Source: Escherichia coli (GTDB taxonomy: Bacteria > Pseudomonadota > Gammaproteobacteria > Enterobacterales > Enterobacteriaceae). Taken from it: a stretch of DNA of 64,000 nt. The position numbers and the translations under genes are program-made. Below the pieces are notes generated by a model. It ran no database searches and was not told the DNA's origin. It was given only the letters and a program-made list of their open reading frames with translations. Below, piece after piece: positions 3,419 through 49,602 of the stretch (positions within the stretch are counted from its first letter, which is position 1; the number at the start of each line of letters is the position of its first letter). The DNA lies in NCBI RefSeq assembly GCF_024700885.2, contig NZ_CP117016.1. One strand, given 5' to 3'.

Positions 3419-3503
3419 GCCGAAGTGGCGAAATCGGTAGACGCAGTTGATTCAAAATCAACCGTAGAAATACGTGCCGGTTCGAGTCCGGCCTTCGGCA
3501 CCA
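3419..3503 (+). tRNA. leuX: tRNA-Leu (anticodon CAA)
   Basis: 85-nt sequence GCCGAAGTGG...TTCGAGTCCGGCCTTCGGCACCA with a CAA anticodon loop and long variable arm; genomic position after ahr. Confidence 0.9.
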
Positions 3504-19169: not shown

Positions 19170-19676
19170 TAACCATACAACAAAACCTGATATTTATTGT
19201 GATATATAACGTATCAAACTTTATAACTTTTAAATATATGTTATGTTCATACTATGTCGAATGATAGTGCTCAAGTAGCACATCTAAAAAGACAATGCAA
19301 AACAGTAATAACCCCCCTTGCTAAAAAAAGGGGGGTATCATCCCTACACCGTCTCCAAAGGAGATGGAGATAGTTCCTATAAGGTCATAGCCTAAAAAAT
19401 ACCTATGACGGAATATCTCAACTTACTCACCACAATTAAAAAGAGACAAAATGACATGGAGTTTATGTGACCTCATCCCATTTTGCACAGCCTCCATTGT
19501 TCTGACATTGACGGCAGGTTGCCGCTTTATATCCGGCTTTATTGCAGCCATAAAGTTATGTGCCACTATATAATTCTCTGACTCACACTTCATTTACTGC
19601 ACGGGCTTCAAGCCCAAACCTCATGCAGGTTTAGTGAGTCCCAATCTTACCTGTCTTTATCATCTGTCACGAACGA

Positions 19677-21249
<1,573 letters not shown>

Positions 21250-21297
21250 TGAAATTCCTGAGAGAATAGTGGACACCAAATATGGTGGACGCTATCC

Positions 21298-21702: not shown

Positions 21703-22046
21703 TCCCATTACCATCAGGGACAAAGATCTGGCTGGTCGCTGGCATCACCGATATGAGAAACGGCTTCAACGGCCTGGCGGCAAAGGTGCAGACGACGCTG
21801 AAAGACGATCCGATGTCAGGTCACGTTTTTATCTTCCGTGGGCGTAATGGCAGTCAGGTAAAGCTCCTCTGGTCTACCGGCGATGGACTGTGTCTGCTGA
21901 CCAAACGGCTGGAGCGCGGCCGCTTCGCCTGGCCGTCAGCCCGGGATGGCAAAGTGTTCCTCACACCGGCACAGCTGGCGATGCTGCTGGAAGGTATCGA
22001 CTGGCGGCAGCCTAAAAGACTACTTACGTCCCTGACTATGTTGTAA
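21699..22046 (+). CDS. IS66 OrfB (TnpB)
   Basis: 115 aa; overlaps orfA by 4 bp as is typical. Confidence 0.7.
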   Translation: MIPLPSGTKIWLVAGITDMRNGFNGLAAKVQTTLKDDPMSGHVFIFRGRNGSQVKLLWSTGDGLCLLTKRLERGRFAWPSARDGKVFLTPAQLAMLLEGIDWRQPKRLLTSLTML

Positions 22047-22094
22047 GCCTCTTTATCCTGGTCGACGCTGAATGAGCCTGGTAATATACCCGGT

Positions 22095-23519
22095 ATGAGC
22101 AGCTCACTTCCTGACGATATCAATGCACTGAAACGTCTCCTTGCCGAACAGGAGGCGCTGAACCGTGCCCTGCAGGAAAAGCTGAACGAGCGTGAACGCG
22201 AAATAGACCATCTGCAGGCACAGCTGGATAAGCTGCGCCGGATGAACTTCGGCAGCCGCTCGGAAAAAGTCTCCCGTCGTATCGCACAGATGGAAGCTGA
22301 CCTGAAGGCACTTCAGAAAGAAAGTGATACCCTTACCGGTCGGGTTGACGACCCGGCCGTGCAGCGCCCGCTGCGTCAAACCCGCACCCGCAAACCGTTC
22401 CCCGAATCACTCCCCCGCGATGAAAAACGGCTGCTGCCGGCAGCGTCATGCTGCCCGGAATGTGGAGGCTCGCTGAGCTATCTGGGTGAGGATGCCGCCG
22501 AACAGCTGGAGTTGATGCGCAGCGCCTTCCGGGTTATCCGGACTGTACGTGAAAAGCATGCCTGTACTCAGTGCGATGCCATCGTGCAGGCCCCCGCGCC
22601 TTCACGGCCCATCGAGCGGGGTATCGCAGGACCGGGGCTGCTGGCCCGCGTGCTGATCTCAAAGTATGCAGAGCACACCCCGCTGTACCGCCAGTCTGAA
22701 ATGTACGGCCGCCAGGGCGTGGAGCTGAGTCGTTCACTGCTGTCGGGCTGGGTGGATGCATGCTGCCGGCTACTGTCACCGCTGGAAGAAGCGCTTCAGG
22801 ACTATGTGCTGACTGACGGTAAGCTCCATGCTGATGACACGCCTGTCCCGGTGCTGTTGCCAGGCAATAAGAAAACGAAGACCGGGCGGTTATGGACCTA
22901 CGTTCGTGACGACCGTAACGCCGGGTCAACGCTGGCGCCGGCGGTGTGGTTCGCTTACAGCCCGGACAGAAAAGGCATCCATCCGCAGACCCATCTTGCG
23001 GGGTTCAGTGGTGTACTGCAGGCGGATGCATACGCCGGGTTCAACGAGCTGTACCGGGATGGCCGGATAACGGAAGCCGCCTGTTGGGCTCACGCCCGCC
23101 GTAAAATCCACGATGTGCACGTTCGCACCCCGTCAGCCCTGACGGAGGAAGCGCTGAAACGGATCGGCGAACTGTACGCCATCGAGGCAGAGATAAGGGG
23201 AATGACGGCGGAGCAGCGCCTTGCCGAACGTCAGTTGAAAACGAAACCGCTGCTGAAATCCCTGGAAAGCTGGCTGCGTGAAAAGATGAAAACCCTGTCG
23301 CGACACTCAGAACTGGCGAAAGCGTTCGCATACGCCCTGAACCAGTGGCCGGCGCTGACGTACTATGCAGATGATGGCTGGGCTGAGGCGGACAATAACA
23401 TCGCTGAAAATGCGTTGCGGATGGTCAGTCTGGGCCGCAAAAACTCTTATGACCTTTGTCAAATATTAAGCCCAAAAAGACCTACGCAGCTCCGGGAGCT
23501 TCGTTATATCGCGGATTAA
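22095..23519 (+). pseudogene. IS66 TnpC transposase, interrupted after codon GRKN (~23444) by IS110 insertion; C-terminus resumes at 24897-25079
   Basis: Homology ends at ...MVSLGRKN and resumes at GGERGALLYSLIGTCKLNGVEPESYL on the far side of the insertion. Confidence 0.75.
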
Positions 23520-24896
23520 AGAACCTGAAACAGTCAGACTGTATCTTGGATTTTACAAACTCTTATTCGGGGATTTTAGCCCCATGACGATTTACGCAGT
23601 GAGCTGGCCTCTTTCTACGTGCAGGTATTAGCGCATTCTGGCTTCCCTGAATTCTTTTTCGAGGATCACTCATTCCGTGTCTGACTGCTTCAGGGTTTAA
23701 TTTTGCTTCTGCTGACTGAATGATGATTGGGCAGCAAGTGCAATATCCCACATAAATCCAGTCAACTCACGAGCCACCGCCGTAATGGCTACTTGTGATT
23801 TTTTCCCTTTTGCTGTCAGAGTTCGGTAACGAGAACACAATCGTTGTTGAGCTTTCCATGCAATATCTTTGGAATATTGTGTTACAGAGTCCGGTCGGTA
23901 ATATATAAGCCATGCACCAACTTTTGCAGGTGTACGATAAGACCAGGCGGCTTCGTAAAGCAGACGTCTCAGTTCGCTGTTTCCAACTTTTGTTATTCCT
24001 CTGGGACGAATACTGTTTCCACTGGAATATTCACCTGGCACCAGTCCCAGAAAAGCCATGAGCTGTTTGGGATTGGAAAATCGCGAAAAATCACCCAGTT
24101 CAGCAACCAGGGTTATTGCAATTAGCTGACCAACACCTTTTAGAGCCTGCAACTGGCAGACCAGATTGCACAGAGACCACTCAGGTAACAGGCGAGATAT
24201 TTCCTGGTCGAGTTGAAGTATGCGATCTTCAATCTGCTCCAGACTTTGACAATAGTGTTGAAAAGCAATCTGCTGAGATGGCTGACTAAATGATTGATTA
24301 GCTAACCAGGTTCGATGTTTGCCGGTCCAGTGCTTCCCTGCATAACGTTTGTCTGTTCGCAATAGCATGCTCAGAATTCGCTGTCGGGCAACTCTGCTGT
24401 CTCGTTTAGCTGCTGCACGGGCTCTGATTAGATCCCGCATAGCTTCATGAGTCAGGTCAGGGATCCAGACAGGGGTAAGTTCACCAGCCCGCAGTAACCT
24501 GGCAAGAGAAATTGCGTCCCGATGATCATTTTTGATTCTGTCTGTCGGTGATTTTGGTATCCGGGAAGGGGCAATAACCTGGAATTTTATATTCATCGCT
24601 GTGAGTTGATGATATAGCCCAAAACCACAGGGGCCAGCCTCATAGCAGGAAAGAATGTTTCCGTAAAGTCCCTGCAATTTCTGAAATAATCGACGTACAG
24701 CCTGGGCTTCGTTGTTAATCGTACCATAATAACGAACTTCGCCAAGCCGTTCAGGTGCAGCAATAGCAACCGCCAACGTTTCTTTATGTACATCCAGCCC
24801 GATGTAAGCTGCAATATTTTCCGAATGCATAATGACCTCCTCTGGAATATCCCACCAATGCTATAGTGAGTATATAAAGGTCATACCATCTACCTG
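23445..24896 (-). mobile_element. IS110-family element (~1.45 kb) inserted in IS66 tnpC
   Basis: Boundaries inferred from where IS66 tnpC homology breaks and resumes; carries the 377-aa transposase. Confidence 0.65.
23697..24830 (-). CDS. IS110-family transposase
   Basis: 377 aa; N-terminal YIGLDVHK (DEDD-type) and C-terminal LKGVG.LIAITLVAELGDFSRF motif. Confidence 0.75.
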   Translation of the reverse strand: MHSENIAAYIGLDVHKETLAVAIAAPERLGEVRYYGTINNEAQAVRRLFQKLQGLYGNILSCYEAGPCGFGLYHQLTAMNIKFQVIAPSRIPKSPTDRIKNDHRDAISLARLLRAGELTPVWIPDLTHEAMRDLIRARAAAKRDSRVARQRILSMLLRTDKRYAGKHWTGKHRTWLANQSFSQPSQQIAFQHYCQSLEQIEDRILQLDQEISRLLPEWSLCNLVCQLQALKGVGQLIAITLVAELGDFSRFSNPKQLMAFLGLVPGEYSSGNSIRPRGITKVGNSELRRLLYEAAWSYRTPAKVGAWLIYYRPDSVTQYSKDIAWKAQQRLCSRYRTLTAKGKKSQVAITAVARELTGFMWDIALAAQSSFSQQKQN

Positions 24897-25124
24897 TTCT
24901 TCGGTTCGGATCATGGAGGAGAGCGGGGAGCGCTGCTGTACAGCCTGATCGGGACGTGCAAACTGAACGGAGTGGAGCCAGAAAGCTACCTCCGCTATGT
25001 CCTTGACGTCATAGCCGACTGGCCGATAAACCGGGTCGGCGAACTGCTCCCCTGGCGCGTAGCACTGCCGACTGAATAACACATCCCCGTCAATACGGTT
25101 CTTGCTGCACGCTTACAGTTCGTA

Positions 25125-25770
25125 AACGTCCGATAGCGATGATCTGAAGTGCACTATTTGCAGCACGCTCCCCACCCCGATTAAGTCGGTAACGGTTCAT
25201 TTTTTTAGAAGATACGGTAACCGAGTTGACACCACACAGCACCGCAAAACCTGATTCTATTCTTAGCCGTTGGGGATTATCTCCGGCAGTGATGAGCAAC
25301 TGCGAAGCGCTTTCGTATCCAACAGCATTACGTTTAATCAGTTCAGGTGCCAGTTCATCGACAATTGCCGCAATCATGACATCAAGGTCGGCGATTTCAT
25401 CATGTAACTCGAAATAGCGTCAGGCAAGTGATTTCAATGCAATGCGATAAACGTTGGTAACATTACGATATTCACTGGCACTAGGCTTCCAGGATCCCGG
25501 AGTCCTGATAAGTTGCATACGTGTCATATTTCTGAGTGGTTCGCGTAATTCATCCGGTGCAGAGATAATATAGGAATGGATAATCTGGAGAGCGACTCTG
25601 CAGGCTGATATTGCGGTTTTGCGGCAAGTTTTTGGCATCCGCTTCTACGCCAAATACCTGAAGTAGGAATGGATGCGTTAGCAGCATACATCCGGATCTG
25701 CGCGGGGAATAGCCGGAAACGGCTATCCCTACCACAATAGCTAACTTTGTAATAGTGCCCTTTTAGGCTC
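25125..25770 (-). pseudogene. Degenerate IS110-family transposase remnant
   Basis: Fragments in two frames with the IS110 C-terminal-domain pattern (FAVLCGVNSV..SSKKMNRYRLNRGGERAANSAL). Confidence 0.4.
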
Positions 25771-26800
25771 ATGTACTCTGACGTAATTCTATCTGGTAGT
25801 TGAATTGCACGATACGCGACTCTTCTGATTCATCATGATTATTATTCAATAGCCCAATCAGTAACTTACCCGTCTCTATCCCCATTTTTTTGTAGTCAAT
25901 ACGGATGGATGTCAAGGTTGGGTGTGTTTGATCGCAATTGTCTGAACCATCAAGACAAGCTACAGCGATATTTTCAGGAATTTTTAACAAACGCCGCTGG
26001 CACTCAAACATGATACCCAGCGCAATCTCTTCGTGGCTGCAAATCACAGCATCCAGCTCTGGTTGTCGCAGTAATATCTCGTTTAATGCGTAACGCCCCA
26101 ATTGCAGACTTGCGGCATCCGGCATGGTGATAACAAGATCAGAGTTCTGGTAATGGCTCAACATTGCTTTATGCCAGCCGTTCAGTTGCTGACGTTGCAG
26201 GCGGTTGTCCATATGCGCACCGATAAATCCGATATTCTTATAACCCTGTTCCAGCAGATGTTCGGTCAGTTTATGTGATGCTTCAAAAAATGCTGTTTCG
26301 ATGGTAATTTGAGCCGGACTGAAAGGGGAACCGACAACGTTAATGGTAGGTATATTTGTTTTCTCGAGTATCTGGTGAGTTTTATCAGCCAACTGAGAAC
26401 CAAAAATAACTAACGCCGCCGGGTTGCCTTGAAGAAGCGTCATCAGAATTTCAGCTTCTTTGAGCTGATTATACTCATGACACCCAAGCAGTAGCTGGAA
26501 TTCATTTTTATTAAGCACCTGCTGCAACGACTGCATAAAGCGGGAGCTGGCTTTATCTGTCAGGGAAGGAACCAGTACGGCGACTGTATCACTGTGACCA
26601 GATGCAAGGGCGCCAGCAGTTCTGTTGGGAATATAACCCAACTCTTCTACGGCCTGTTCTATCTTTTCCCTCAGCTTGTCAGATACCTGTTCCGGTGTTC
26701 TCAGCGCACGGGAAACGGTCATGGTTCCGACACCTGCAAAGTTAGCGACCTCCTGCAGCGTCACCCGTCCGGTACCACGGCGCTTACGTGTTTTTTCCAT
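25769..26800 (-). CDS. LacI-family transcriptional regulator
   Basis: N-terminal HTH VTLQEVANFAGVGTMTVSRAL plus periplasmic-binding-like domain. Confidence 0.8.
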   Translation of the reverse strand: MEKTRKRRGTGRVTLQEVANFAGVGTMTVSRALRTPEQVSDKLREKIEQAVEELGYIPNRTAGALASGHSDTVAVLVPSLTDKASSRFMQSLQQVLNKNEFQLLLGCHEYNQLKEAEILMTLLQGNPAALVIFGSQLADKTHQILEKTNIPTINVVGSPFSPAQITIETAFFEASHKLTEHLLEQGYKNIGFIGAHMDNRLQRQQLNGWHKAMLSHYQNSDLVITMPDAASLQLGRYALNEILLRQPELDAVICSHEEIALGIMFECQRRLLKIPENIAVACLDGSDNCDQTHPTLTSIRIDYKKMGIETGKLLIGLLNNNHDESEESRIVQFNYQIELRQST

Positions 26801-27070
26801 TTCGACTCCATGGATAATTACAACCAGCTGTTTTCATTACTTTTATTTCACCATTACTCTTTCCAGTTTTTGCCCACGGTAGCAAATATCCTGTTGCATT
26901 GTATATGCAGGAACCGAATATAGCCAAAGCATGGCGGCAGAGAAATGATAGCGCTATCACAAAGATTGATAGCGTTATCAGATAGCGCTATCAAATGCGA
27001 CAATCATCACATTAATTAATGCGTAAAATATCTACTCTCCTGTTAATTATCATCGGGAGTTATCAGTAGC

Positions 27071-35894: not shown

Positions 35895-36551
35895 TTACTG
35901 GCCAGTTGTTGCTTCCTGAGAAGACTGATAGCGTACCGAGGTTTTGAAATAGCTCCAGAAGTCGTACACTGGCTCAGTAGAACAATATAGTTTGGAACGC
36001 ATTACCGCACCTTCCCAGCCACTCCAGAAAATAGCCGCCAGTTGTGTATTATTCATATTTGAACTTATTTCGCCTGAAGATAACGCGTCGGACAGGCAGG
36101 CCGCAACAAGTGCCTGCCAGCTCTCAAGAATATTCTGTAGTACTTTAATGAAGGATTGGGGAAGCCCCGGACTCTCCTGCATCATATTTCCAACCAGGCA
36201 GCCGCGGGTAAAATTGTATTTTTTAATCCCCTCACAGGCATCATTGATGAAATTTTCCAGACGTACCATTGGTGTGCAGGATGATTCATGTAGATGTTTT
36301 TTGAGTTTATGCTCGAAGAAACTGTCATAGGCGTTCAGAACGGTCTGAGCATAATCCTCTTTACTCTTAAAGTAGTAATAAAATGAGCCTTTAGGGACAT
36401 TGGCATTTTTAACAATGGCATCGACTCCCGTCGCAAGAAAACCATTCTGCGTCAGCAGTTCAAGGCCACTGCGGATCAGATCATTACGAGTATCTGCATA
36501 GGTACTTTCTGTCTTTCGCGGCCTTCCCCGGCCACGATTTTCGCCTGTCAT
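35895..36551 (-). CDS. TetR/AcrR-family transcriptional regulator
   Basis: HTH (LIRSGLELLTQNGFLATGVDAIVKNANVPKGSFYYYF); start at MTGENRG with SD aggag. Confidence 0.75.
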   Translation of the reverse strand: MTGENRGRGRPRKTESTYADTRNDLIRSGLELLTQNGFLATGVDAIVKNANVPKGSFYYYFKSKEDYAQTVLNAYDSFFEHKLKKHLHESSCTPMVRLENFINDACEGIKKYNFTRGCLVGNMMQESPGLPQSFIKVLQNILESWQALVAACLSDALSSGEISSNMNNTQLAAIFWSGWEGAVMRSKLYCSTEPVYDFWSYFKTSVRYQSSQEATTGQ

Positions 36552-36798
36552 GACCCATCTCCTACATTTTATTAACGCAAAAGAATAAGTGATTTTGCGC
36601 GAGAGCTTCAATCAGTTTATCCCCGCAGTGGCAAAGTGTTCGCTTTTGCCGACTGGACAGTGGCAGTGCCTGTCGCTACTGCGCCATCGCTGAACAGTGC
36701 AGAATTAGCAACGTTTGCTTTTGGCACAAAGCATACGCCCATTCTCACGCGAATGCTTTGCCCTTGACTTGCCAACAACCGAATCGCTTGCTCTGCAG

Positions 36799-38076
36799 CT
36801 ATGTTTTTTTATTAGAATATTCGCCACTAAATAAATTATAATAAGTTGATTTTATTAGATATCTATCAGAATCTATATGGTCAGCACGAGTTGCATGCTC
36901 TAATGTTTCAAATGCCAGGGTATGTGCGGCTTCAGCAAATATCCCTGGCCAACCTTTACTCAGCATCGACAGTCCTTTAAGGACTCTTATCTGAATCTCC
37001 CTCATACTGGCACCATCGCGCGCGACAGGTGAGAAAAAGTCTTCCAGTAGATCGTTATTCTGAAGTGGTGCAACATGTACTGAAGGATATTTCACTTCTA
37101 TTTCATCAGATTTATTCTGCGCGTAAGTGGAAAGTATACGAACACCTCTGCCAATGACATCAATGGCGGTTCCAGGATCGTTCACTGCAGGGGAAAGGGC
37201 CCGGCAGGCTATTTCGGCCATGACGCTAAGACAAAATCGAGGATCCTGAGCAAATGAACGTGCATCCGAGACAATAATCGTCTCAAGTAAATCGGTGCTG
37301 ATTGACGACTCCTGGCCCTGACTCAGGTACAAAACTGGCATGGACGGATGTATGAAACTGCCTGGCTGCGCCACGAGGTATACATGACGGGGATCATTGG
37401 TCAGCAGCTTGCTAAGTTTCACCATATCAATATATTCAACATAGCCAATCTTCTTCGGATAAACTGCAACCGTTCCTTTCGGCTGTTCATTGTTCTCAAG
37501 CCATGGATATCCGCCGAGACAGGGATTTCTTGCTCTCGCAATAAATGTTTCGATGGCCGCCTGTTCTACTTGTGCCGTTGTCTCACCAACCCTCCCCAGA
37601 GAGGTCAAATGCTGTATCCAGCGAAGCAATGTGATGAGGATTAAGGCAATGACAACCAGTGTGACAATGAATAAAATGACTCTCCCCCTTTCTCCATAAG
37701 CTCCCATATTGAGGGCAATAATCCCTACCAGACTGAAGAGAAAAGAACCGATGAAGGTGGCCAGTACATTTTGTGTGGTGACGTCTTCAACAACTAAACG
37801 CGTAGCTCTGGGAGTCACATTAGTAGTGGCTGAACCGTAGGCTGTGACCATGATACTCAGCGAAAATGTGGTCACTGCCAGCATACTCGATGCCAGTATG
37901 TTCAGAATGTTATCGACTGCTTCCGCACCAACCTTCACGGAAACCGACTCAGGTATCATTGATTTAAAAAGAATTGATAAAAGGGCCGTTATTATCGCGA
38001 CAATTGCGAATAACGTTGCCCTGAACCATAGTTTTTTAATTGTCTGCTTCAGCATCCATTTCCAGCGTGAAATCAT
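36799..38076 (-). CDS. DUF2254-family membrane protein
   Basis: Multi-TM N-terminal half plus soluble domain; start ambiguous (38091 or 38076). Confidence 0.55.
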   Translation of the reverse strand: MISRWKWMLKQTIKKLWFRATLFAIVAIITALLSILFKSMIPESVSVKVGAEAVDNILNILASSMLAVTTFSLSIMVTAYGSATTNVTPRATRLVVEDVTTQNVLATFIGSFLFSLVGIIALNMGAYGERGRVILFIVTLVVIALILITLLRWIQHLTSLGRVGETTAQVEQAAIETFIARARNPCLGGYPWLENNEQPKGTVAVYPKKIGYVEYIDMVKLSKLLTNDPRHVYLVAQPGSFIHPSMPVLYLSQGQESSISTDLLETIIVSDARSFAQDPRFCLSVMAEIACRALSPAVNDPGTAIDVIGRGVRILSTYAQNKSDEIEVKYPSVHVAPLQNNDLLEDFFSPVARDGASMREIQIRVLKGLSMLSKGWPGIFAEAAHTLAFETLEHATRADHIDSDRYLIKSTYYNLFSGEYSNKKT

Positions 38077-38138
38077 TCTGCATTCCCTCATATTGCGGCC
38101 GGGATAATAATTGCCGCCCCCAGGACGGCATGTTGCTA

Positions 38139-40142
38139 TTAACGAACCAGGTGCAGGAAGTGCAGATGTTTTTCGTACTGGTCCAGTATGTCATTAATCA
38201 GCTGTTCCTGGTTCCAGCCCATCACATCATAATTTTGACCGCCTTCTTTGAGATAAACCTCAGCGCGATAATATCGATGTTGTTCAGTCTGCTGCTCATC
38301 ATTATCCATTGCGGCGAGCGCGAAGGTCGGTGAGATATACCCGCGAAGCCTCACTTCATATATAAAATTCAGCTCGTTGCCCAAATCGACTTCAAGACGA
38401 ATACGATCGTCGACTGCATCACTAATGTGGCTTATCGTCCCCTGCTTGTTCAGTTCCTCCTGAACCAGCGTCATGGCGGGCTGGATAACGTCGTCCATAA
38501 AACGTTTCACAAGAGATCGCTTCGGCAGATACGCGATATTGCGTAACCTTCTCTGCCAAGGAATTGGGTTACGTGCAGCCGTAGGAGCAATTGTCGCCAT
38601 GCTCAGGCTTTCACGCTTGGTCAAATCCCGGCGCAAAGCTTTTAAAAGTCCGTATATAGATATTAGTAAGATCACTGAGAAGGGCAATGCACTCGCTATT
38701 GTCACCGTTTGCAGCGCACTTAGCCCTCCGGCAAGGAGAAGCGCAATTGCAACAATGCCCATGAGCGAGGCCCAGAATATTCGCTGCCAGACGGGTGTGT
38801 TTGCCACTCCACCTGATGCCAGAGTATCCACAACCATTGCCCCCGAATCAGCAGACGTTACAAAGAAGACGATGACCATCGCCATTGCAATGAATGACAG
38901 CACAGAAGAGAACGGGAAATGCTCCAGGAAATTAAACAGGGCCAGCGCCACATCCTGCTGAACAGTATTGGCGAGGTCTGTGGCCCCCTGGTTCATAATG
39001 AGATAGATCGCGCTGTTACCAAACACCGTCATCCACATTAGCGTAAAACCCGCGGGAACAAACAGCACGCCGGTGACAAACTCGCGAATGGTTCGCCCGC
39101 GGGAGACTCGTGCGATGAACATCCCCACAAACGGCGACCATGAAAGCCACCATCCCCAGTACAGTAATGTCCAGCCCCCCAGCCAGTTGCTCGACTTGGG
39201 CTCATACGCGTAAAGGTTGAACGTTTTACTCACCAGTTCCGAAAGATAACCGCCCGTATTTTCCACAAATGACTTCAGCAGAAGCACGGTTGGTCCCAGA
39301 CACAGGACCAGCGCCAGGAGCAACAAAGCCAGACCCAGATTGAGTTCAGACAGGATACGTATTCCCTTATCCAGACCGGACACCACTGAAATCGTCGCTA
39401 ACCCCGTGATGACCACGATCAGAATTACCTGCACCGTTTCATTGATGGGCACCCCGAAAAGATGGTTCAAACCGGCATTCACCTGCAAAACACCGTAACC
39501 CAGTGATGTCGCAACGCCAAAGACCGTGCCTATAACAGCGAAAATATCAACCGCATGTCCTACAGGTCCGTATATGCGATCGCCAATAATGGGATAGAGT
39601 GCGGAGCGCAGAGTTAAAGGCAGACCGTGACGGTAACTGAAGAACGCCAGAATCAGCGCCACAATGGCATAAATTGCCCATGCGTGCAGTCCCCAGTGGA
39701 AAAAGGTCAGACGCATTGCTTCCTTAGCTGCCGCAACGGTTTCTGGAGTGCCAACGGGTGGCGAAAGATAATGCATTACAGGTTCGGCAACGCCAAAGAA
39801 CATCAGGCCGATCCCCATCCCTGCCGAAAAAAGCATCGCAAACCAGGAGTGGTAGCTGAAATCAGGCTGCGCATGGTCCGGGCCCAGCTTGATATCACCG
39901 TAGCGTGAGAGTCCAAGGAACGTGACACTCAGTAAAATCAGGGCCACAGCAAGGATGTAGAACCAGCTGGCATTCGTGAAGATTTGTTGCTGAAGTAGTT
40001 TAAAATTTTTGTCGGCGACATCCGGGAATACGGCGGCAAAGGCGACAAGAAGGAAAATTAGCAAAGCAGATGTAAAGAATACCGCTTTGTTAATCTGACT
40101 TGTAGACTTCTTTGGGATTGTATCATTTTCACTCATAATCAT
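38139..40142 (-). CDS. BCCT-family betaine/carnitine/choline transporter
   Basis: 667 aa; BetT-like polytopic protein with long C-terminal cytoplasmic tail. Confidence 0.75.
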   Translation of the reverse strand: MIMSENDTIPKKSTSQINKAVFFTSALLIFLLVAFAAVFPDVADKNFKLLQQQIFTNASWFYILAVALILLSVTFLGLSRYGDIKLGPDHAQPDFSYHSWFAMLFSAGMGIGLMFFGVAEPVMHYLSPPVGTPETVAAAKEAMRLTFFHWGLHAWAIYAIVALILAFFSYRHGLPLTLRSALYPIIGDRIYGPVGHAVDIFAVIGTVFGVATSLGYGVLQVNAGLNHLFGVPINETVQVILIVVITGLATISVVSGLDKGIRILSELNLGLALLLLALVLCLGPTVLLLKSFVENTGGYLSELVSKTFNLYAYEPKSSNWLGGWTLLYWGWWLSWSPFVGMFIARVSRGRTIREFVTGVLFVPAGFTLMWMTVFGNSAIYLIMNQGATDLANTVQQDVALALFNFLEHFPFSSVLSFIAMAMVIVFFVTSADSGAMVVDTLASGGVANTPVWQRIFWASLMGIVAIALLLAGGLSALQTVTIASALPFSVILLISIYGLLKALRRDLTKRESLSMATIAPTAARNPIPWQRRLRNIAYLPKRSLVKRFMDDVIQPAMTLVQEELNKQGTISHISDAVDDRIRLEVDLGNELNFIYEVRLRGYISPTFALAAMDNDEQQTEQHRYYRAEVYLKEGGQNYDVMGWNQEQLINDILDQYEKHLHFLHLVR

Positions 40143-40246
40143 TTATTCCATTAATTAAATTCGCACTGGATAGAAGGTACTACCTCTCACAAAGTAGCAA
40201 AGTTCAACTGGCTATGCGGCGTTAATCGGAATGCATGGTGGAATGT

Positions 40247-41493
40247 TGAGGTGTACTGGCAATAGCGGACACTACCATTTGTTCTTTTTTTAAGCAGCCA
40301 TCTGATGATATTTTTCCCTGAAGGCTGCCGGGGAGATATTCCCCAGACGAGAGTGACGACGCTGACGATTGTAGAAAATCTCAATGTATTCCCGTATTAC
40401 TGAGATGGCTTCATCCCGGTTATTAAAACGATAGTGGCTCAGGCTCTCATTTTTCAGCGTTCCCCAGAAGCTTTCCATCGGAGCGTTGTCGTAACAGTTA
40501 CCTTTACGCGACATTGATGTTTTCAGACCAAACTGCTCCTGTATGACACGGTAATCGTATGCGCAGTACTGTGAACCTCGATCAGAGTGGTGGATTAGCC
40601 CGGCAGGTGGGCGCTGGCTCCTGAGCGCCATAAACAGGGCTTTACCTGTCAGCTCTTTTGTCATGCGCTCTCCCATGGCGTAGCCGACAATTTCGCACGT
40701 ATAAACATCTTTGATGCCAGCGAGGTACAACCATCCCTCCTGTGTGGCAACATACGTCAGGTCCGCCACCCAGACCTGATTTGGTGCTGTAGGAGCGAAC
40801 GTCTGGTTCAGCAGATTTGGCGCAACTGGCAGATTGTGGTTCGAGTTCGTAGTCGCTCTGAACTTGCGTTTCTGCTTACAGCGTAGCCTTAGCTCCTTAC
40901 GAAGACGTGCCAGTCGGTCACGACCAACGATGATGCCATTCTCTGCCAGCTCCGTCTGGAGCTGCCGGGTTCCATATGTTTCGCGAGTGCGGATATGCGC
41001 CACCTTAATCTCCAGTTTTAGCCGCTCATCACTTTGTTTTCTGTCTGAGGGTTCATGCTGTACCCAGTTGTAATAACCGCTCCTGGATACACCAAATACC
41101 TGACACATCGCTTCAATGGGAAATTGTTGTCGCCATTGTTCGATTAACGCGTATTTTTCAGCGACTCCTGTGCAATTTAATATATCTCGCTCAAGGCGAG
41201 CTTCATTTAACGCCTTACGCAGTTGCAGAATTTCAGATTCCAGTTCAGCCACCGTGCGGGAACCAGGAGTACCGAGCCCTTTTCTGGCGGCGGTAACCCA
41301 TTGTCCTAAAGTGCCTTCAGGAAGAGATAATCGGGAAGCACCTTCACTGATCGAAAGTTGATTTTCAAGAACCGTTCTGACAGCTTCGGCTTTGAACTCT
41401 TTAGAGTAACGTTGGGTTTTTCTGCTCATTATTAGCTCCTTCTGATGCCATTCTATTTCAGGAAGGAGTGTCCGTTAAACTCAGGCTACCTCA
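40247..41493 (-). mobile_element. IS3-family insertion sequence (1247 bp), imperfect terminal IRs TGAGGT...CGGACACT
   Basis: Terminal repeats at 40247-40276 and 41464-41493; internal transposase. Confidence 0.7.
40290..41429 (-). CDS. IS3-family transposase encoded as a single fused OrfAB reading frame (379 aa)
   Basis: N-terminal HTH and C-terminal DDE integrase core (ADLTYV, HHSDRGSQY, YDNAPMESFW) in one uninterrupted frame. Confidence 0.75.
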   Translation of the reverse strand: MSRKTQRYSKEFKAEAVRTVLENQLSISEGASRLSLPEGTLGQWVTAARKGLGTPGSRTVAELESEILQLRKALNEARLERDILNCTGVAEKYALIEQWRQQFPIEAMCQVFGVSRSGYYNWVQHEPSDRKQSDERLKLEIKVAHIRTRETYGTRQLQTELAENGIIVGRDRLARLRKELRLRCKQKRKFRATTNSNHNLPVAPNLLNQTFAPTAPNQVWVADLTYVATQEGWLYLAGIKDVYTCEIVGYAMGERMTKELTGKALFMALRSQRPPAGLIHHSDRGSQYCAYDYRVIQEQFGLKTSMSRKGNCYDNAPMESFWGTLKNESLSHYRFNNRDEAISVIREYIEIFYNRQRRHSRLGNISPAAFREKYHQMAA

Positions 41494-41575
41494 TTGGTTC
41501 CCACTACTTATTTGGTGGACACCACTTTGTCTAATTCGTCAGATTCTGACCAGACGGTTCAGGCTGTACGCTTAC
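41494..41575 (-). mobile_element. Orphan IS66-family terminal fragment (82 bp)
   Basis: Same 82-bp string as 49521-49602, the left end of the IS66 copy at 47315-49602, ending ...GTACGCTTAC. Confidence 0.7.
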
Positions 41576-41609
41576 AAACAACTAGTGGAAATACTTGTAC
41601 TTTATAATT

Positions 41610-42554
41610 TCAAGGGTACGGGTCCGCTTCGTTTGATTTGCGTGTTTTTAACAATTTTAAAACCCAGACATACTGTTCCGGATGTGGCCCCACCAAAATT
41701 TCCACTGTTTTGTTCATTTGTCGGGCAATCATTTTATTGTCCGCGCTGGCAATGCAAGCATCCATTGGTGGCCGAATTTCAATAGTCAGGAGATGTTTTT
41801 TTTCATCATAAACCGGGAAAAGTGGTATAATCATAGCCTGACTGATGTTCATCAGACGTCCAATGATTGGTAATGTCGCTTTATAGGTCGCAAAAAAATC
41901 AGCAAATTCACTGTATTCAGGACCATGATCCTGATCTGGGAGGTAATATCCCCAGTATCCCTGGCGTACTGACTGAATAAATGGTTTTATCCCATCCTCC
42001 CGGGCATGTAAGCGCCCCCCGAATTTACGCCGTACTGAATTCCAGACATAATCAATCACTGGATTTCGTTGCTGATGAAACATGGCGGCCATTTTTTTTC
42101 CCTGAGCTGCCAGCAACATTGCAGGAATATCCACGCTCCAGCCATGGGGAACCAGAAAAATCACATTTCTATTATTGTGTCGAATTTCCTCAAGAATTTC
42201 GAGGCCTTTCCAGAACACTCGTTTCTGGAACTTTTCCGGACCACGAATTGCCAGTTCTGCCATCATCACTATGGATTGCAATGCTGTGGCAAACATTTTG
42301 TCGACAATTATTTCCCGTTCTGTATCACTCTTTTCTGGGAAACAAAGCGATAAATTAATCGTCGCCCTGCGACGAGCTTTTTTGCTCAATCTGCCCACCC
42401 AACGCCCTATTTTTGCCAAGACAGGATCTCTGAATGAAGGGGGAAACATTGAAATACCTGCAATCATTCCCAAAAGGAACCATGTAGACCAGTAAACAGG
42501 GGAAAGGTAATTTTTCTTAAATTCAGGAATAAACTCAGATTTATATTTTTTCAT
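41610..42554 (-). CDS. Lipid A secondary acyltransferase (LpxL/LpxM family, MsbB2-like)
   Basis: 314 aa; LpxM-family call on overall similarity (acyltransferase H-box region around VPHGWS); adjacency to a virK-like gene as on Shigella virulence plasmids. Confidence 0.7.
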   Translation of the reverse strand: MKKYKSEFIPEFKKNYLSPVYWSTWFLLGMIAGISMFPPSFRDPVLAKIGRWVGRLSKKARRRATINLSLCFPEKSDTEREIIVDKMFATALQSIVMMAELAIRGPEKFQKRVFWKGLEILEEIRHNNRNVIFLVPHGWSVDIPAMLLAAQGKKMAAMFHQQRNPVIDYVWNSVRRKFGGRLHAREDGIKPFIQSVRQGYWGYYLPDQDHGPEYSEFADFFATYKATLPIIGRLMNISQAMIIPLFPVYDEKKHLLTIEIRPPMDACIASADNKMIARQMNKTVEILVGPHPEQYVWVLKLLKTRKSNEADPYP

Positions 42555-42618
42555 TATTTAGTGCGAATGCCTCTACCAAAATTATCATTACTGTTTTATT
42601 CAGAGAATACATCAAACC

Positions 42619-43233
42619 TTAATTTAAATTCTGATGTTCTGAGTGTACAGGATATGCATCCAAAGAGCGGATAGTAGTTTCATGGATATAATCCAGCAAA
42701 GCGTATCGTTTTCGGTACTCAGAGCGTTTTTTACTGGCTATATCGCTTAGCGGCTTTCGAATCACCTGGGTTGGTAATCTGTACCAGTCACCACAGGTTT
42801 TTCCTGCTACAGACTCCCAGAAATCACTATAGACCGCAACAAAGGTTTTGCGTTTCTGATACCAGTATCTCAATTGCCGGAAAACATGACTGTGCTCACT
42901 GACTGCCAGACACTCAGAGATATTGCAAGCTTTCATCAACGCACAAAATGCTTCAAAAATAATCCGTTTTGGGAAAATCCCATAACAGGCCCGGGTTGCG
43001 CACCGAATAACATCAGGTCCGGTATTTTTAGGGGCTCCCTGTAATCCGCCAATAAAAGCAATGTGTCCATTTTGAGTCAGAATGACTGAAAATGTTAACC
43101 GGGCAATAACTGTTTTATTGTAAAACAATGACAACATCAACTCTCCTTCCCGGTCAAAACCACTGGGAGAACACTGGATATCAAAATTCTCTCCATCTTT
43201 CCCGATGAATTGGACTAATGATACCGATTTTTG
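42619..43233 (-). pseudogene. VirK-like (DUF535) gene, 5'-truncated at the IS1 boundary
   Basis: C-terminal 173 aa (IGGLQG, ACYGIFPKRI, RKTFVAVYSDFW); ORF runs into the IS1 end at 43234. Confidence 0.55.
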
Positions 43234-43288
43234 GGTAATGCTGCCAACTTACTGATTTAGTGTATGATGGTGATTTTAAGGTGCTTGC

Positions 43289-43564
43289 GTGGCTTCCATT
43301 TCCATCAGATGTCCTTCCTGCTCCGCTACTGAAGGCGTGGTGCGTAACGGCAAAAGCACTGCCGGACATCAGCGCTATCTCTGCTCTCATTGCCGTAAAA
43401 CATGGCAACTACAGTTCACTTACACCGCCTCTCAGCCCGGTACGCACCAGAAAATCATTGATATGGCCATGAATGGCGTCGGATGTCGCGCCAGTGCACG
43501 CATTATGGGCGTTGGCCTCAACACGGTTTTACGTCACTTAAAAAACTCAGGTCGCAGTCGGTAA
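43289..43564 (+). CDS. insA: IS1 InsA
   Basis: [30 protein letters not shown]... Confidence 0.85.
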
Positions 43565-43986
43565 CCTCGCGCATACAACCGGGCAGTGATGTGATTGTCT
43601 GCGCTGAAATGGACGAACAGTGGGGCTACGTCGGTGCTAAATCACGTCAGCGCTGGCTGTTTTACGCGTATGACAGGATACGGAGGACGGTTGTGGCGCA
43701 CGTCTTCGGTGAACGCACTCTGGCCACACTGGAGCGTCTTCTGAGCCTGCTGTCGGCCTTTGAGGTCGTGGTATAGATGACGGATGGCTGGCCGCTGTAT
43801 GAATCACGCCTGAAGGGAAAGCTGCACGTTATCAGCAAGCGTTACACTCAGCGCATTGAGCGACATAATCTGAATCTGAGACAACATCTGGCAAGGCTGG
43901 GACGGAAGTCACTGTCGTTCTCAAAATCGGTGGAGCTGCATGACAAGGTCATCGGGCATTATCTGAACATAAAACACTATCAGTAA
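43483..43986 (+). pseudogene. insB: IS1 InsB with in-frame TAG stop at 43774-43776
   Basis: Translation reads ...[18 protein letters not shown] across the stop; canonical IS1 has W at this position as I recall it. Confidence 0.7.
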
Positions 43987-44071
43987 GTTGGAGTCATTAC
44001 CTCCTCCCGAACTCAAAGCTATCATACAGATAATTACTGGTTAACCCTATATAGGGCATTTTAAAGTGTTG

Positions 44072-44400
44072 TGATCTTACCCAGCAATAGTGGACACGCG
44101 GCTAAGTGAGTAAACTCTCAGTCAGAGGTGACTCACAAGACAAAACAGTTTCAACCAGTAAAAAAACGTAAACACCATTCGCATGAATTTCGTAGTTAAG
44201 ATCTGAAGCTTGCAGAATGCATCGGTGTTACTGCCGGAGTCCGTGAACTTAGTCTGCATGAATCACCACAGCTTTACATCTGTCGCAGTAAACAGCAAAA
44301 TCAGCAAACTTACTTAATTATATCGAGTGCGATTACAATCGCTGGCGATGGTACAGTTGGTGTGGCGGTCTCAGTCCGGAACAATTTGAAAATCAGAATC
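44072..44400 (+). mobile_element. IS3 internal-deletion relic (left IR, 5' of orfA, fused to the 3' end region)
   Basis: TGATCTTACCCAGCAATAGTGGACACGCGGCTAAGTGAG... followed by degenerate orfA 5' sequence and then orfB 3' sequence. Confidence 0.55.
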
Positions 44401-44710
44401 TCACTTAAAACGGCATCCATTTTACAAAAGATGGCCGTCTGTGTATTTATAATGAATACCTTCTACATGTTTAGAGTGCATAATCCACGACAAGGCGATA
44501 TCCTAAAAATTAGCTAGCAGGCAACTTTGATGGCATAGATAATGTTTTTAGTAAAAAAGAGTTGACTTAATATAATACAGCCTCTTCCTACATAAGAAGG
44601 AATGTGCTCACAAAAAAAAACATTAGTCTGCTTCCTGTTCTTACAATAATCAGTATTATGTATTTTATTTATATAGCAAAATATGCTTGTTACACCTGTC
44701 ATAATTAGGC

Positions 44711-45004
44711 ATGGTAAAATTATTGACTGAACCCTGGGGGAGAAAGATGCACAGTGATTATTATAATATGGTTTTTGGTGAAAAATTGGCCAATATTTTA
44801 TATGAAGCTAACTCTCAATTTTTTTACGAGAGAAATGTCATAGAAGAGGCAGTCAACGCTTTATTCTGTGAGCGTGAAATAATAAACAACAAGAACATAA
44901 TAAAGAAGCTGATGTTCTTTTTGTCAGATGTTAATCACACCAAGAAAGATGTTGTTCAGAGCGCACTTAATATTATCATTGACATTACATCAGGTGATAT
45001 TTGA
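44711..45004 (+). CDS. Hypothetical small protein (97 aa), AT-rich
   Basis: ORF only; no recognisable motif; weak support. Confidence 0.25.
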   Translation: MVKLLTEPWGRKMHSDYYNMVFGEKLANILYEANSQFFYERNVIEEAVNALFCEREIINNKNIIKKLMFFLSDVNHTKKDVVQSALNIIIDITSGDI

Positions 45005-45261
45005 GATTTTACATAAAAGATAATCTCTCAAGGAGTCTTATCTGAAAACGAAATATATAGTCCCTCTCGTTTTGTAATATCGATTGGCTTTGTTGAATCG
45101 GTTACGTACCCCGGAGCCGGTCATATTTTCAGGTAATACACACGCTTTCAGACATTTCGGCTTTCGTCATTTTGGTATCATGGGCATAGCTTCTGCTACC
45201 TGACCATCATAATCACGCAGCTTCAGTGAAGCAGTGACCACCTGTTTAACCCGGTGTATCG

Positions 45262-45486
45262 TTATGATCTTATCCAGCAATAATGGACACGCGGCTAAGT
45301 GAACCGCCCCGGGTTTCCTGGAGAGTGTTTTATCTGTGAACTCAGGCTGCCAGATCATCGTTTCCGATGGAAGCATAATAAGCTTTTTCTGCTTCTGCCG
45401 GTGGGATATGGCCCTGCCTTTCCAGCAATCGTCGATTGTTATACCAGTCCACCCACGTGAGTGTGGTCAGCTCATCATACTGACAC
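45262..45486 (-). mobile_element. IS3-family (IS629-like) 3' fragment abutting a second IS3 left-IR copy
   Basis: Minus-strand frame encodes ...WVDWYNNRRLLERQGHIPPAEAEKAYYASIGNDDLAA; end sequence TGAACCGCCCCGGGTTTCCTGGAGAG. Confidence 0.5.
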
Positions 45487-45754
45487 GTGCATTACCCCTA
45501 CCGCGATAATGCAACCGTACAATATAGGGCGTTTCCTAAACGCAGCCCTCATCACTCCAATCCAACAAGACACAGCATTTTTGATCACGAAGAAAGACAA
45601 ATAATTTCCGTAAATGTTTCCGTTGTTACAAATAACAACAGTGTTTTACATTTCTTTGGCCTCAGGCCCGCGCATGTTGCCATTCGATGTCATTTTCCTG
45701 ACTCGTTTCTTCTTTATGGTGTAGTGTGATCTTCACTTTATGGATGCTAACAAT

Positions 45755-47113
45755 ATGAAAAGAAAAATTATTCCCGTGCTAATCGGTTGTACGCTCTCTT
45801 TCTCTGCCCTGGCGGCACAACCTACGGCTGAGCGCTATGTCGTCAGTTTTCCAGAAGGCACGCACGTGAACTACGCCGGCGCATTTGCCAGTGCATTCCC
45901 GAACGGCCTTCCGGTTGGGATAGGTTCTGGCCTGCTGTTCACCGGTAAACAGGGCGATGCCCTGACATTCGCAACCATTACCGATCGCGGTCCGAACGCG
46001 GATTCACCGAAAGAGGGGAAAAACGAAACTAAAATTTTCGTTACGCCAGATTTCGCGCCGCTGCTGATGACGATTCGTGTACAAAACGGCAAAGCGGAGG
46101 CCATCGATCCCCGTCCTCTGCATGACGATAAAGGCGCGATCAACGGTCTGCCGCTGGCAAGCGACGTGATTGGCTCCACCAATGAAGTGGCCTTCAGCGA
46201 CACGTTACATAGACTGAAGGGGGATAATCGCGGGCTGGATACGGAAGGGATCACTCCGGATGGTAAAGGAGGTTACTGGCTGTGCGATGAGTATGGCCCG
46301 TTCCTGATTAACATCGACAGTAAAGGGAAAATCCTGGCAATCCACGGTCCGCAGGCGGCGGAAGAGGAAAAAGCGATTGCGGGCGGTTTGCCAAATATCC
46401 TCAAATGGCGTCAGGCGAACCGCGGCTTTGAAGGCCTCACCCGTATGCCGGACGGGCGTATTATTGTCGCCGTGCAAAGTACGCTGGATATCGACGCTAA
46501 GAGCAAGAAAAAGGCGCTGTTTACGCGTCTGGTGAGCTTCGATCCGGCAAGCGGAAAAACCGCGATGTACGGTTATCCCATCGACAGCGCGGCCTACAGC
46601 AAAAACAGCGACGCTAAAATCGGAGACATCGTGGCGCTCGATAACCAGCACATCCTGCTGATCGAACAGGGAAGAGATAAAAACAACAGAATGCGTAACC
46701 TGATTTACGAGGTCGATCTCAATAAGGCGAGCGACCTGTCAGGCTTCGACAAGCCGGGTGAGTATCCGGAGTTTGATGATGAGAAAACCCTGTCACAGCG
46801 CGGCATTACCCTTGCGCAGAAAACGCAGGTTGTTGATCTGCGCTCCTTGGGCTGGCAGCAGGAGAAGGCTGAAGGGTTGGCGCTGATCGACAGCAAAACG
46901 CTGGCGGTGGCGAACGATAACGACTTTGGCGTGAAGGTGGCGATGCAACATCCGGTCGAGGGCAAGACATTCAAGGATTATCGGGTGAACGCGGAAGGAA
47001 AGCTGACGCTTGACGACAAGCAGGTTGAAACGACCCTCAGAGTGAAGCCACTGGAGAAACCGGAGTCTGACAGTGAACTGTGGATTGTGACGCTGCCGGA
47101 AGCGTTGAAATAA
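45755..47113 (+). CDS. Secreted phytase-like esterase family protein (signal peptide)
   Basis: N-terminal signal sequence MKRKIIPVLIGCTLSFSALAA; family call is tentative. Confidence 0.55.
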   Translation: MKRKIIPVLIGCTLSFSALAAQPTAERYVVSFPEGTHVNYAGAFASAFPNGLPVGIGSGLLFTGKQGDALTFATITDRGPNADSPKEGKNETKIFVTPDFAPLLMTIRVQNGKAEAIDPRPLHDDKGAINGLPLASDVIGSTNEVAFSDTLHRLKGDNRGLDTEGITPDGKGGYWLCDEYGPFLINIDSKGKILAIHGPQAAEEEKAIAGGLPNILKWRQANRGFEGLTRMPDGRIIVAVQSTLDIDAKSKKKALFTRLVSFDPASGKTAMYGYPIDSAAYSKNSDAKIGDIVALDNQHILLIEQGRDKNNRMRNLIYEVDLNKASDLSGFDKPGEYPEFDDEKTLSQRGITLAQKTQVVDLRSLGWQQEKAEGLALIDSKTLAVANDNDFGVKVAMQHPVEGKTFKDYRVNAEGKLTLDDKQVETTLRVKPLEKPESDSELWIVTLPEALK

Positions 47114-47314
47114 GTTTATAAGGTACGGACAGCAGTATCGCTTAGTTTTTCAAATTCATGTATGTGAACAATATTGGGGTTCCGGCGTAGACCCCCAATG
47201 AAAGCGTCACCACGTGAAAACATGCCTGCACGGTTTACACGTCATCCCATGGTGGCAGCCGGTTAACTTTCCTGCGCCACCAGTGGAAAAAGGCCATAAG
47301 CAGTCCGAACAAAA

Positions 47315-49602
47315 GTAAGCGTACAGCGAGGGCCGTATTGACGGGGATGTGTTATTCAGCTGGCAGTGCTATGCGCCACGGAAGCAGTTCGCTGACCCGG
47401 TTGACCGGCCAGTCTGCTATGACGCCAGGCACATGGCGAAGGTAGCTTTCTGGATCCACGTCATTCAGTTTGCACGTCCCGATCAGGCTGTACAGTAGCG
47501 CTCCCCGCTCACCACCATGGCCAGAGCCGAAGAACAGGGTCTTCATCTTTTCACGCAACCAGCTTTCCAGGGATTTCAACAGCGGTTTCGTTTTTCGCTG
47601 ACGTTCAGCAAGCCGCTGCTCTGCCGGCATTCCCCTTATATCCGCCTCTATGGCGTACAACTGACCGATCTGCTCCAGGGCTTCTTCCGTCAGTGCTGAC
47701 GGGATGCGGACGTGCACATCGTGGATCTTTCGGCGGGCATGAGCCCAGCAGGCAGCTTCCGTTATCCCACCATTGCGATACAGCTCGTTGAACCCGGCGT
47801 ACGCATCCGCTTGCAGCACACCGCTGAAGCAAGCAAGATGAGTCTGCGGATGGATGCCTTTTCTGTCCGGGCTGTAAGCGAACCTCACTGCAGGTGCCAA
47901 CGCTGACCCGGCATTGCGGTCATCACGAACATACGCCCACAACCGCCCGGTCTTCGTCTTCTTATTACCCGGCAGCAGTACCTGGACCGGGGTATCATCG
48001 GCATGGAGTTTGCCGTCAGTCATGACATAGCCATGAAGCGCCTCTTCCAGCGGAGACAGCAGCCGGCAGCATGCATCCACCCAGCCCGACAGCAGTGAAC
48101 GGCTCAGCTCCACACCTTGCCGGCCGTATATTTCTGACTGGCAATACAGCGGGGTGTGCTCTGCATACTTCGAGGTCAGCACGCGGGCCAGCAGCCCCGG
48201 TCCGGCGATACCCCGCTCGATGGGCCGCGAAGGTGCAGGTGCCTGCACGATGGCATCGCACTGAGTACAGGCATGTTTTTCCCGTACCGTCCGGATAACC
48301 CGGAAGGCGCTACGCATCAACTCCAGCTGTTCGGCGGTATCCTCGCCCAGATAGCTCAGTGAACCGCCGCAGTTCGGGCAGCACGGCGCCGCAGGCAACA
48401 GTCGCTTTTCGTCACGGGGTAGTGATTCAGGGAACGGCTTACGGGTGCGGGTCTGACGCAACGGACGCTGTACTGCCGGGTCATACACCCTACCAGTCAG
48501 CGTATCGCTCTCTTTCTGAAGCCGGTTCAGATCGGCTTCCATTTGTGCGATACGGCGGGAGACTTTTTCGGAACGACTGCCGAAGTTCATCCGGCGGAGT
48601 TTATCCAGCTGCGCCTGCAGATGTCTATTTCGCGCTCCCGGTTGCTCAGCTTTTCCTGCAGGGCGTGGATCAGCGCTTCCTGTTCGGCCAGGCGCTGTTT
48701 CAGCAGGAAGATGTCGTCAGAAGAGATTTCGTTCATAAGCCCGTATTTTACCGGGCTTATTCTGTGACAACCAGGATAAAGAGATTTACAGCATGGTCAG
48801 GGAGGTCAGCAGCCGCTTGGGCTGTCGCCAGTCGATACCTTCCAGCAGCATCGCCAGCTGCGCCTGCGTAAGGAACACTTTGCCATCACGGGCTGACGGC
48901 CAGGCGAAGCGCCCACGCTCCAGCCGTTTGGTCAGGAGGCACAGTCCGTCACCGGTGGACCACAGCAGTTTAACCTGACTGCCGCTGCGGCCCCGGAAAA
49001 TGAAAACATGGCCGGACATGGGATCGTCTTTCAGCGCCGTCTGTACTTTCGCAGCCAGGCCGTTGAAGCCATTTCTCATATCGGTGATACCGGCAACCAG
49101 CCAAATTTTGGTCCCGGAAGGTAACGGGATCATCGCTTCAGTTCCTGTATCAGCAGAGTCAGGAGCTTTTCGCTGACATTGCCATTGAAGCGGAGCGTCC
49201 CGTGCCGGAACGTTACCTCACAGCTGATACTGAGGGTTTCCGGGTCCTCTGCGAGCGATTCTGGCTGTTCGGCAGCTGCATCGGGAGTCACAGGAAGTAG
49301 CTGGGGGCTCTCTGAAGAAGGTAATAGCAGCTTTCCCTCGCGCCATTGTTGTCGCCATTTGAACAACAGATTGGCGTTAATGCCATTTTCAAGAGCAAGT
49401 TTTGAGATGGATATCCCGGGTTCACAGGAGGCAGCAACGAGCTGCTGTTTAAATTCGGGAGGATAATTAGGGCAGCCTTTTCACCTGCCGGGAGTCACAT
49501 TTTTCTGCATATCTGACACTTTGGTTCCCACTACTTATTTGGTGGACACCACTTTGTCTAATTCGTCAGATTCTGACCAGACGGTTCAGGCTGTACGCTT
49601 AC
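47315..49602 (-). mobile_element. IS66-family element, degenerate (tnpC frameshifted with an internal deletion)
   Basis: Ends GTAAGCGTAC... and ...GTACGCTTAC; orfA 49130-49366, orfB 48786-49133, tnpC pieces 47352-48590 and ~48600-48760. Confidence 0.75.

Follow-up and report, generated by a model that had tools for sequence, protein, structure and literature searches.

A chromosomal msbB2–virK pair in a leuX island of Escherichia coli: the probable tail of an operon cut by an IS1-adjacent deletion

In the leuX island of an Escherichia coli chromosome, a gene for a late acyltransferase of lipid A stands beside the remains of a virK-like gene. The locus raises the question of how this pair relates to the msbB2 operon of Shigella virulence plasmids, how virK lost its upstream part, and whether the acyltransferase is still transcribed and changes lipid A. 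We analysed the whole stretch of 64,000 nucleotides in which the pair lies, referred to as the window.

The acyltransferase gene and its place in the leuX island

The features needed to describe the locus are as follows.
3419..3503, plus strand: leuX, tRNA-Leu(CAA), attachment site of the island (ARAGORN; annotation of the identical MLI114 chromosome)
40247..41493, minus strand: IS600-type element of the IS3 family, just downstream of msbB2 (97.8% identity to pINV IS600)
41610..42554, minus strand: msbB2 (lpxM2), encoding a 314-aa lauroyl-Kdo2-lipid IVA myristoyltransferase paralogue (RefSeq WP_024946613.1)
42555..42618, minus strand: virK–msbB2 intergenic spacer of 64 bp
42619..43233, minus strand: remnant of virK, a pseudogene that retains codons 113-316 of 316 and, at 42619-42621, its native stop
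43234..44001, plus strand: IS1 copy of 768 bp, whose left inverted repeat (ggtaatgctgcc...) adjoins virK; left boundary of a 14.6-kb deletion

The tRNA-Leu(CAA) gene is the only tRNA gene found by ARAGORN in the window. After the genes lptG-yjgR-ahr-leuX, an IS-rich island extends up to the window's end, and the pair lies in the leuX island, as the first-pass annotation had placed it. The chromosome of E. coli MLI114 is 100% identical to the window over a 1.9-kb query (41400-43300), and its annotation gives lptG, yjgR, ahr and leuX followed by an IS-rich mosaic island that extends past Ag43 and yeeU. The last 25 nt of leuX (3479-3503) are directly repeated at 9077-9101, 5.6 kb downstream. Next to this second copy comes the start of a CE10-type island integrase, given as truncated in the MLI114 annotation; window 9077-9734 shares 99.8% identity with CE10. 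A small element of 5.6 kb appears to have been added at leuX, forming a tandem with the older island. Its genes are one of the recombinase family, one of HTH type and several hypothetical ones.

The msbB2 ORF has 314 codons, starts with ATG and is uninterrupted. Its product matches the Pfam profile PF03279 (Lip_A_acyltrans) from end to end, residues 10-304 covering profile positions 2-295 of 295 (E 6e-96, 321.5 bits versus a cutoff of 22.3), which bears out the earlier reading of an intact acyltransferase of the LpxL/LpxM family. The NCBIfam equivalog TIGR02208 (lipid_A_msbB) scores 444 bits and exceeds its cutoff of 336, whereas the LpxL and LpxP models remain far below theirs (175 bits versus 298, and 124 versus 517, respectively). 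The product shares 304 of 314 residues (97%) with LpxM/MsbB2 of S. flexneri pINV, and 70% with K-12 LpxM, most of the core being invariant. At the catalytic site, H137-G-W-S-V-D142 lines up with HGWAVD in K-12 LpxM, and the HX4D motif is invariant in the alignment. As read from the sequence, residues ~21-37 (YWSTWFLLGMIAGISMF) form a hydrophobic N-terminal membrane anchor, which is conserved with Shigella MsbB2. The only solved relative is the LpxM of Acinetobacter (5KN7). An enzyme of different acyl-chain or acceptor specificity, LpxL- or LpxP-like rather than a true LpxM, is highly improbable. All members of PF03279 share one fold and nothing more specific points that way, whereas the profile scores and the 97% identity to the characterised MsbB2 both argue against it.

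At the nucleotide level, msbB2 is 97.2-97.4% identical to the copies on 128 Shigella plasmids and 98-99.5% identical to those on E. coli plasmids. Its dN/dS relative to the Shigella allele is 0.17, hence the gene family is under purifying selection, as befits a functional enzyme family. We also considered the clade of Ecf4/MsbB2 from EHEC O157:H7. Ecf4 likewise provides a second LpxM, encoded on the plasmid pO157 by the last gene of an envelope operon of four genes, but it is only 65.8% identical to the window's protein and falls in a separate clade, which rules out that assignment. Because the identity is 97% to pINV MsbB2 and only 65.8% to Ecf4, the window's msbB2 is, judged by its sequence, a member of the Shigella/EAEC MsbB2 clade. 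The housekeeping LpxM (MsbB, b1855) belongs to the same family, has the same predicted reaction and keeps the HX4D motif. It differs in being a paralogue at another locus, nine residues longer and found in essentially all E. coli.

The closest known operon is that of pINV (S. flexneri pWR100/pCP301), with the order shf(pgdA)-rfbU(wabB/gtr4)-virK-msbB2. It shares with the window the gene order, the 64-bp spacer and a nearby IS600, the identity of msbB2 being 97% in amino acids and 97.4% in nucleotides. What is left of virK shares 94% identity with residues 113-316 of Shigella VirK, a protein of 316 aa. The pairing of acyltransferase and virK on Shigella virulence plasmids, to which the first-pass annotation likened the locus, is thus recognisable within the pINV order shf-capU-virK-lpxM, and alignment to Shigella msbB2 and virK reveals no low similarity. 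The same order, shf-capU-virK-lpxM, is found on E. coli plasmids. Different from pINV, the window's locus is chromosomal, it lacks shf, capU, virK codons 1-112 and the PhoP-dependent promoter, and its IS600 adjoins msbB2 in the opposite orientation. Relative to the pINV element, the IS600 copy lacks about 17 bp, which joins orfA and orfB in one ORF of 379 aa (40290-41429, minus strand) that needs no frameshift. This ORF is an intact IS3-family transposase in RefSeq (WP_000088351.1) and is conserved in sister genomes. A BCCT transporter gene comes next after the IS600 element on the downstream side of msbB2.

Chromosomal versions of the operon have been described. EAEC 042 has a chromosomal shf-rfbU-virK-msbB2 locus (PMC2808357), and in a review of the genomic islands of E. 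coli, VirK and MsbB2 appear among the cargo of both PAI-CE10-leuX and PAI-ED1a-leuX (PMC7545054). The island of CE10 has the order BCCT, IS600, lpxM, virK, capU, shf, IS3, fecEDCBA-RI, and then IS1, integrase and leuX. It agrees with the window in its flanks (BCCT transporter, IS600, lpxM2, virK) and in 99.8% identity over 1.8 kb, and is the direct intact counterpart of the window's locus, although its block is turned the other way with respect to leuX. The window carries a 14.6-kb IS1 deletion allele of it. RefSeq/PGAP already annotates the pair as lpxM and virK (incomplete). Both the gene pair and its location in the leuX island are therefore known and annotated, and neither is new here.

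The virK remnant and the 14.6-kb deletion

The translated minus strand of 42619-43233 matches DUF535 (PF04393) with an E value of 4e-68, but only at profile positions 91-278 of 281. Codons 1-112 with the native start are absent, and PGAP labels the remnant 'virK, incomplete, missing N-terminus', a pseudogene. Homology to virK ends exactly at 43233 and IS1 starts at 43234, so that the positions given for the pair in the first-pass annotation are exact. The earlier description of a DUF535 (VirK-like) neighbour is confirmed, and so is its truncation at IS1. The loss of a 5' half needs correction: 112 of the 316 codons (ca. 35%) are gone, and the loss came about by a large deletion instead of a simple insertion.

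The deletion can be read against a record of E. coli TUM2805 (NZ_CP128951.1 / AP026530.1), which is otherwise collinear. Window 36550-43233 aligns to positions 1017-7700 of this record at 99.7%, and window 43230-47928 to positions 22302-27001 at 99.9%. Orientation and both flanks are the same in the two sequences, and the deletion is their only difference. Specifically, positions 7701-22305 of the record (~14.6 kb) are missing from the window between 43233 and 43234. They contain virK codons 1-112, capU, shf, an intron-bearing IS remnant, fecIRABCDE and ykiE. Neither shf nor capU occurs anywhere in the 64-kb window. The lineage is without the island-borne fec operon for ferric-citrate uptake, which was lost in the same IS1 deletion as the 5' end of virK. 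The TUM2805 record itself is 655 kb long and typed as a non-mobilizable, untypable plasmid, yet its leuX-island content (BCCT, IS600, lpxM, virK, capU, shf, fec, YmgB) looks chromosomal. The record may represent a piece of a chromosome or else a secondary replicon of an unusual kind.

No target-site duplication is present at the ends of IS1, which are flanked by cgatttttg on one side and tcctcccga on the other. This is the signature of an intramolecular (adjacent) IS1 deletion, and IS1 intramolecular replicative deletions are expected to leave no duplication (PMC9330008). The 14.6-kb loss is an IS1-adjacent deletion of this kind, and the locus is a clean natural example of one. Two other histories were considered. 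A simple insertion of IS1 with the 5' part of virK lying beyond it is ruled out, as there is no target duplication and the region past IS1 is the YmgB/phytase-like one. An IS1-mediated inversion, suggested by the inverted block relative to CE10, is not needed, since TUM2805 shares the window's orientation and flanks and differs by the deletion only.

The insB gene of this IS1 copy has an in-frame TAG at 43774-43776, and PGAP describes it in the MLI114 annotation as 'IS1 family transposase; internal stop'. The copy is probably unable to transpose by itself, and on account of the internal stop the IS1::virK junction is probably fixed in place. Past IS1, the island carries two intact cargo genes, a paralogue of the YmgB/AriR-family biofilm and acid-response regulators (44711-45004) and a gene for a 457-aa secreted 'phytase-like esterase' (PF13449; 45740-47113).

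Taken as a whole, the locus is very probably the tail of a shf(pgdA)-capU(rfbU/wabB)-virK-msbB2 operon, in its leuX-island version, that was beheaded by an IS1 deletion. An IS1 originally located beyond the fec operon would have made the adjacent deletion of 14.6 kb. It would have taken with it virK codons 1-112, capU, shf together with the PhoP/Mg2+-regulated operon promoter, and fecIRABCDE, and left behind a virK pseudogene fused to the left end of IS1, followed by an undamaged msbB2.

The second acyltransferase gene is far more widespread than this allele. Of 5,426 complete E. coli genomes, 533 have lpxM2, at 503 places on chromosomes and 85 on plasmids. For the part of the operon that precedes it (virK 5' end, capU, shf), the count is 442 chromosomal places. 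The exact IS1::virK junction is present in ~44 of the 5,426 genomes, and its 100-bp sequence is 100% conserved in 42. The sources of the junction-bearing genomes are humans, dogs, a cat, wastewater and lettuce. In at least 25 of them the whole 1.9 kb is the same as in the window apart from a 1-bp deletion at 42795, which 22 of these carry. The 42795 deletion occurs in most junction-bearing genomes and puts the virK remnant out of frame. The unshifted version is found in the window, MLI114, 200164 and 20AR0300, which therefore represent the earlier state of the allele.

A separate truncation of virK is found in E. coli strain 315 (NZ_CM132958.1, 2436-3790), where the gene is cut ~12 bp from the window's junction by an IS1B that is associated with a tet(B)/tetR element. 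Two independent IS1 truncations so close together suggest a local hot spot for IS1 targeting.

Possible transcription of msbB2 after the loss of the operon promoter

The Shigella operon ends with msbB2. Its promoter or start lies ~100 bp upstream of shf, and its expression depends on PhoP and low Mg2+, according to three reports (PMC12562796, PMC5775216, PMC9496106). The housekeeping lpxM is not PhoP-regulated in Shigella (PMC9496106). In a further report, an insertion in pgdA/shf, the first gene, is described as polar on the downstream genes (PMC4267944). Going by the promoter position given in the first two reports (PMC12562796, PMC5775216), the PhoP-box region upstream of shf lies inside the 14.6-kb deletion and is absent from the window. 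Of the four co-oriented genes shf, capU/rfbU, virK and msbB2, only msbB2 and 65% of virK are left. As the native promoter was deleted, the control of msbB2 by PhoP and low Mg2+ must have been lost.

We then scanned 41300-44100 for promoter consensus sequences, and also inspected the virK remnant for translation signals. Two further features result.
43218..43247, minus strand: candidate hybrid promoter facing msbB2, with -35 TTGGCA (43247-43242), an 18-nt spacer and -10 TATCAT (43223-43218) (consensus scan)
43135..43148, minus strand: Shine-Dalgarno-like AAGGAG (43148-43143), then 5 nt and an in-frame ATG (43137-43135) (read from sequence)

The -35 element of the candidate promoter is within the left inverted repeat of IS1, and the -10 element within the virK remnant. 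With 10 of 12 positions matched it is the best consensus match in the scanned region, although it is a consensus match only and its 18-nt spacer is suboptimal. Seven sites with at least 9 of 12 matches were found in the region, versus 5.2 expected by chance. When the IS1 end was slid along the ancestral operon, a -10 this good arose at only 1.8% of the possible junction positions. The 64-bp spacer between virK and msbB2 contains no promoter-like site in the same consensus scan. IS1 has an outward -35 that forms hybrid promoters when a -10 is suitably spaced, as stated in a report citing Prentki et al. 1986 (PMC8764528), and the activation of afaA in ST131 is a case described there. The window's predicted promoter resembles these hybrids in combining an outward IS1 -35 with a flanking -10, but differs from them in its 18-nt spacer and in having msbB2 660 nt downstream, behind a pseudogene.

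In the proposed mechanism, msbB2 would be transcribed from the hybrid of the outward IS1 -35 and the virK -10, constitutively and independently of PhoP. We lean slightly towards the reading that msbB2 may still be transcribed at a low constitutive level from this predicted promoter, and the PhoP-dependent promoter may thus have been replaced by an IS-derived one. A leader of 680 nt through a pseudogene could be open to Rho-dependent polarity. The internal AAGGAG-N5-ATG could start a 172-aa C-terminal fragment of VirK, and its translation would lessen such polarity in the window's allele.

The competing reading, somewhat less probable but to be taken seriously, is that msbB2 has had no useful transcription since the promoter was lost, and that the gene is intact only because the IS1 deletion is recent, and will itself decay as virK does. 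According to two reports (PMC12562796, PMC4267944), transcription of the operon begins ahead of shf, and insertions in its upstream part have polar effects. The deletion of the PhoP-dependent promoter, shf and capU fits a silent msbB2, and so does the virK–msbB2 spacer without a promoter-like site. The event also looks young, with at least 25 junction-bearing genomes agreeing to 99.9-100% across 1.9 kb, and most sister genomes have the further frameshift in the virK remnant. The near-identity indicates that the event is recent, and an intact msbB2 ORF is thus uninformative on selection since the deletion. Compared with close intact alleles, lpxM2 has 2-5 differences, too few for statistical power on post-deletion selection, and hence only the long-range dN/dS against Shigella is informative.

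The acyltransferase gene itself may be decaying in some junction-bearing genomes, which would also fit a silent gene. In two of four other junction-bearing genomes examined, lpxM2 is annotated as a pseudogene with homopolymer indels. Strain 'ST648' (+T, +C) and CUVET21-37 (-T) have length changes in the T8 run at 42091-42098 and the C run at ~42010-42015 of msbB2. They may be real slippage or decay, or errors of long-read assembly. Two facts weigh against silence: such indels in homopolymers are typical long-read errors, and lpxM2 is the same as in the window in at least 25 junction-bearing genomes. A 10/12 hybrid promoter exactly at the IS1/virK junction, at one of the 1.8% of positions that would give it, also speaks against a silent gene and for the low-level transcription from the hybrid promoter that we favour.

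A stronger reading would have the deletion selected for making the Mg2+/PhoP-inducible msbB2 constitutive, with more hexa-acylation in all conditions and altered TLR4 stimulation or envelope robustness. The chance improbability of the hybrid promoter would fit this, as would the presence of the junction in ~44 complete genomes from varied sources and the independent IS1 truncation of virK in strain 315. The strain 315 junction, however, creates no comparable -10. The deletion also removed fec, capU and shf, so that selection may have acted on those losses or not at all, and the upstream part of the operon is still matched at ~440 chromosomal places. Moreover, most lipid A of E. coli is already hexa-acylated through the housekeeping LpxM. 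We regard selection for constitutive msbB2 as unlikely. The corresponding outcome, in which the deletion created a working IS1/virK hybrid promoter that switched msbB2 from Mg2+/PhoP-inducible to constitutive expression in this one lineage of ~44 complete genomes, and hexa-acylation or envelope robustness rose measurably, is improbable to the same degree.

Expected effect on lipid A

According to two papers (PMC9496106, PMC2808357, citing Goldman 2008 and D'Hauteville 2002), MsbB2 of S. flexneri is active and myristoylates penta-acyl lipid A, a step that the chromosomal MsbB1/LpxM also carries out. From the near-identity (97%) to this characterised enzyme, we infer myristoyl transfer by the window's MsbB2. 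It would move myristate from acyl-ACP to the 3'-secondary position of Kdo2-(lauroyl)-lipid IVA.

The housekeeping lpxM is present in 5,425 of the 5,426 complete E. coli genomes; therefore, the host almost certainly makes hexa-acyl lipid A already. As MsbB2 catalyses the same reaction as LpxM, it could only top up hexa-acylation where LpxM is limiting and would make no new lipid A species. If transcribed, msbB2 would back up LpxM redundantly and change the lipid A profile little, and its effect is probably small. The suggestion in the first-pass annotation that the gene could alter lipid A acylation and innate immune recognition is weakened, because the operon's regulation and partner genes are lost and LpxM is redundant with the enzyme. 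Altered immune recognition through msbB2 is possible in principle, and the effect here is likely small.

The overall importance of the locus is little, as the pair is already in RefSeq and the literature and the host keeps the housekeeping lpxM. The allele has a practical side for virulence-gene screens, in which a score of 'msbB2/virK present' counts it despite the decapitated operon and the missing fec.
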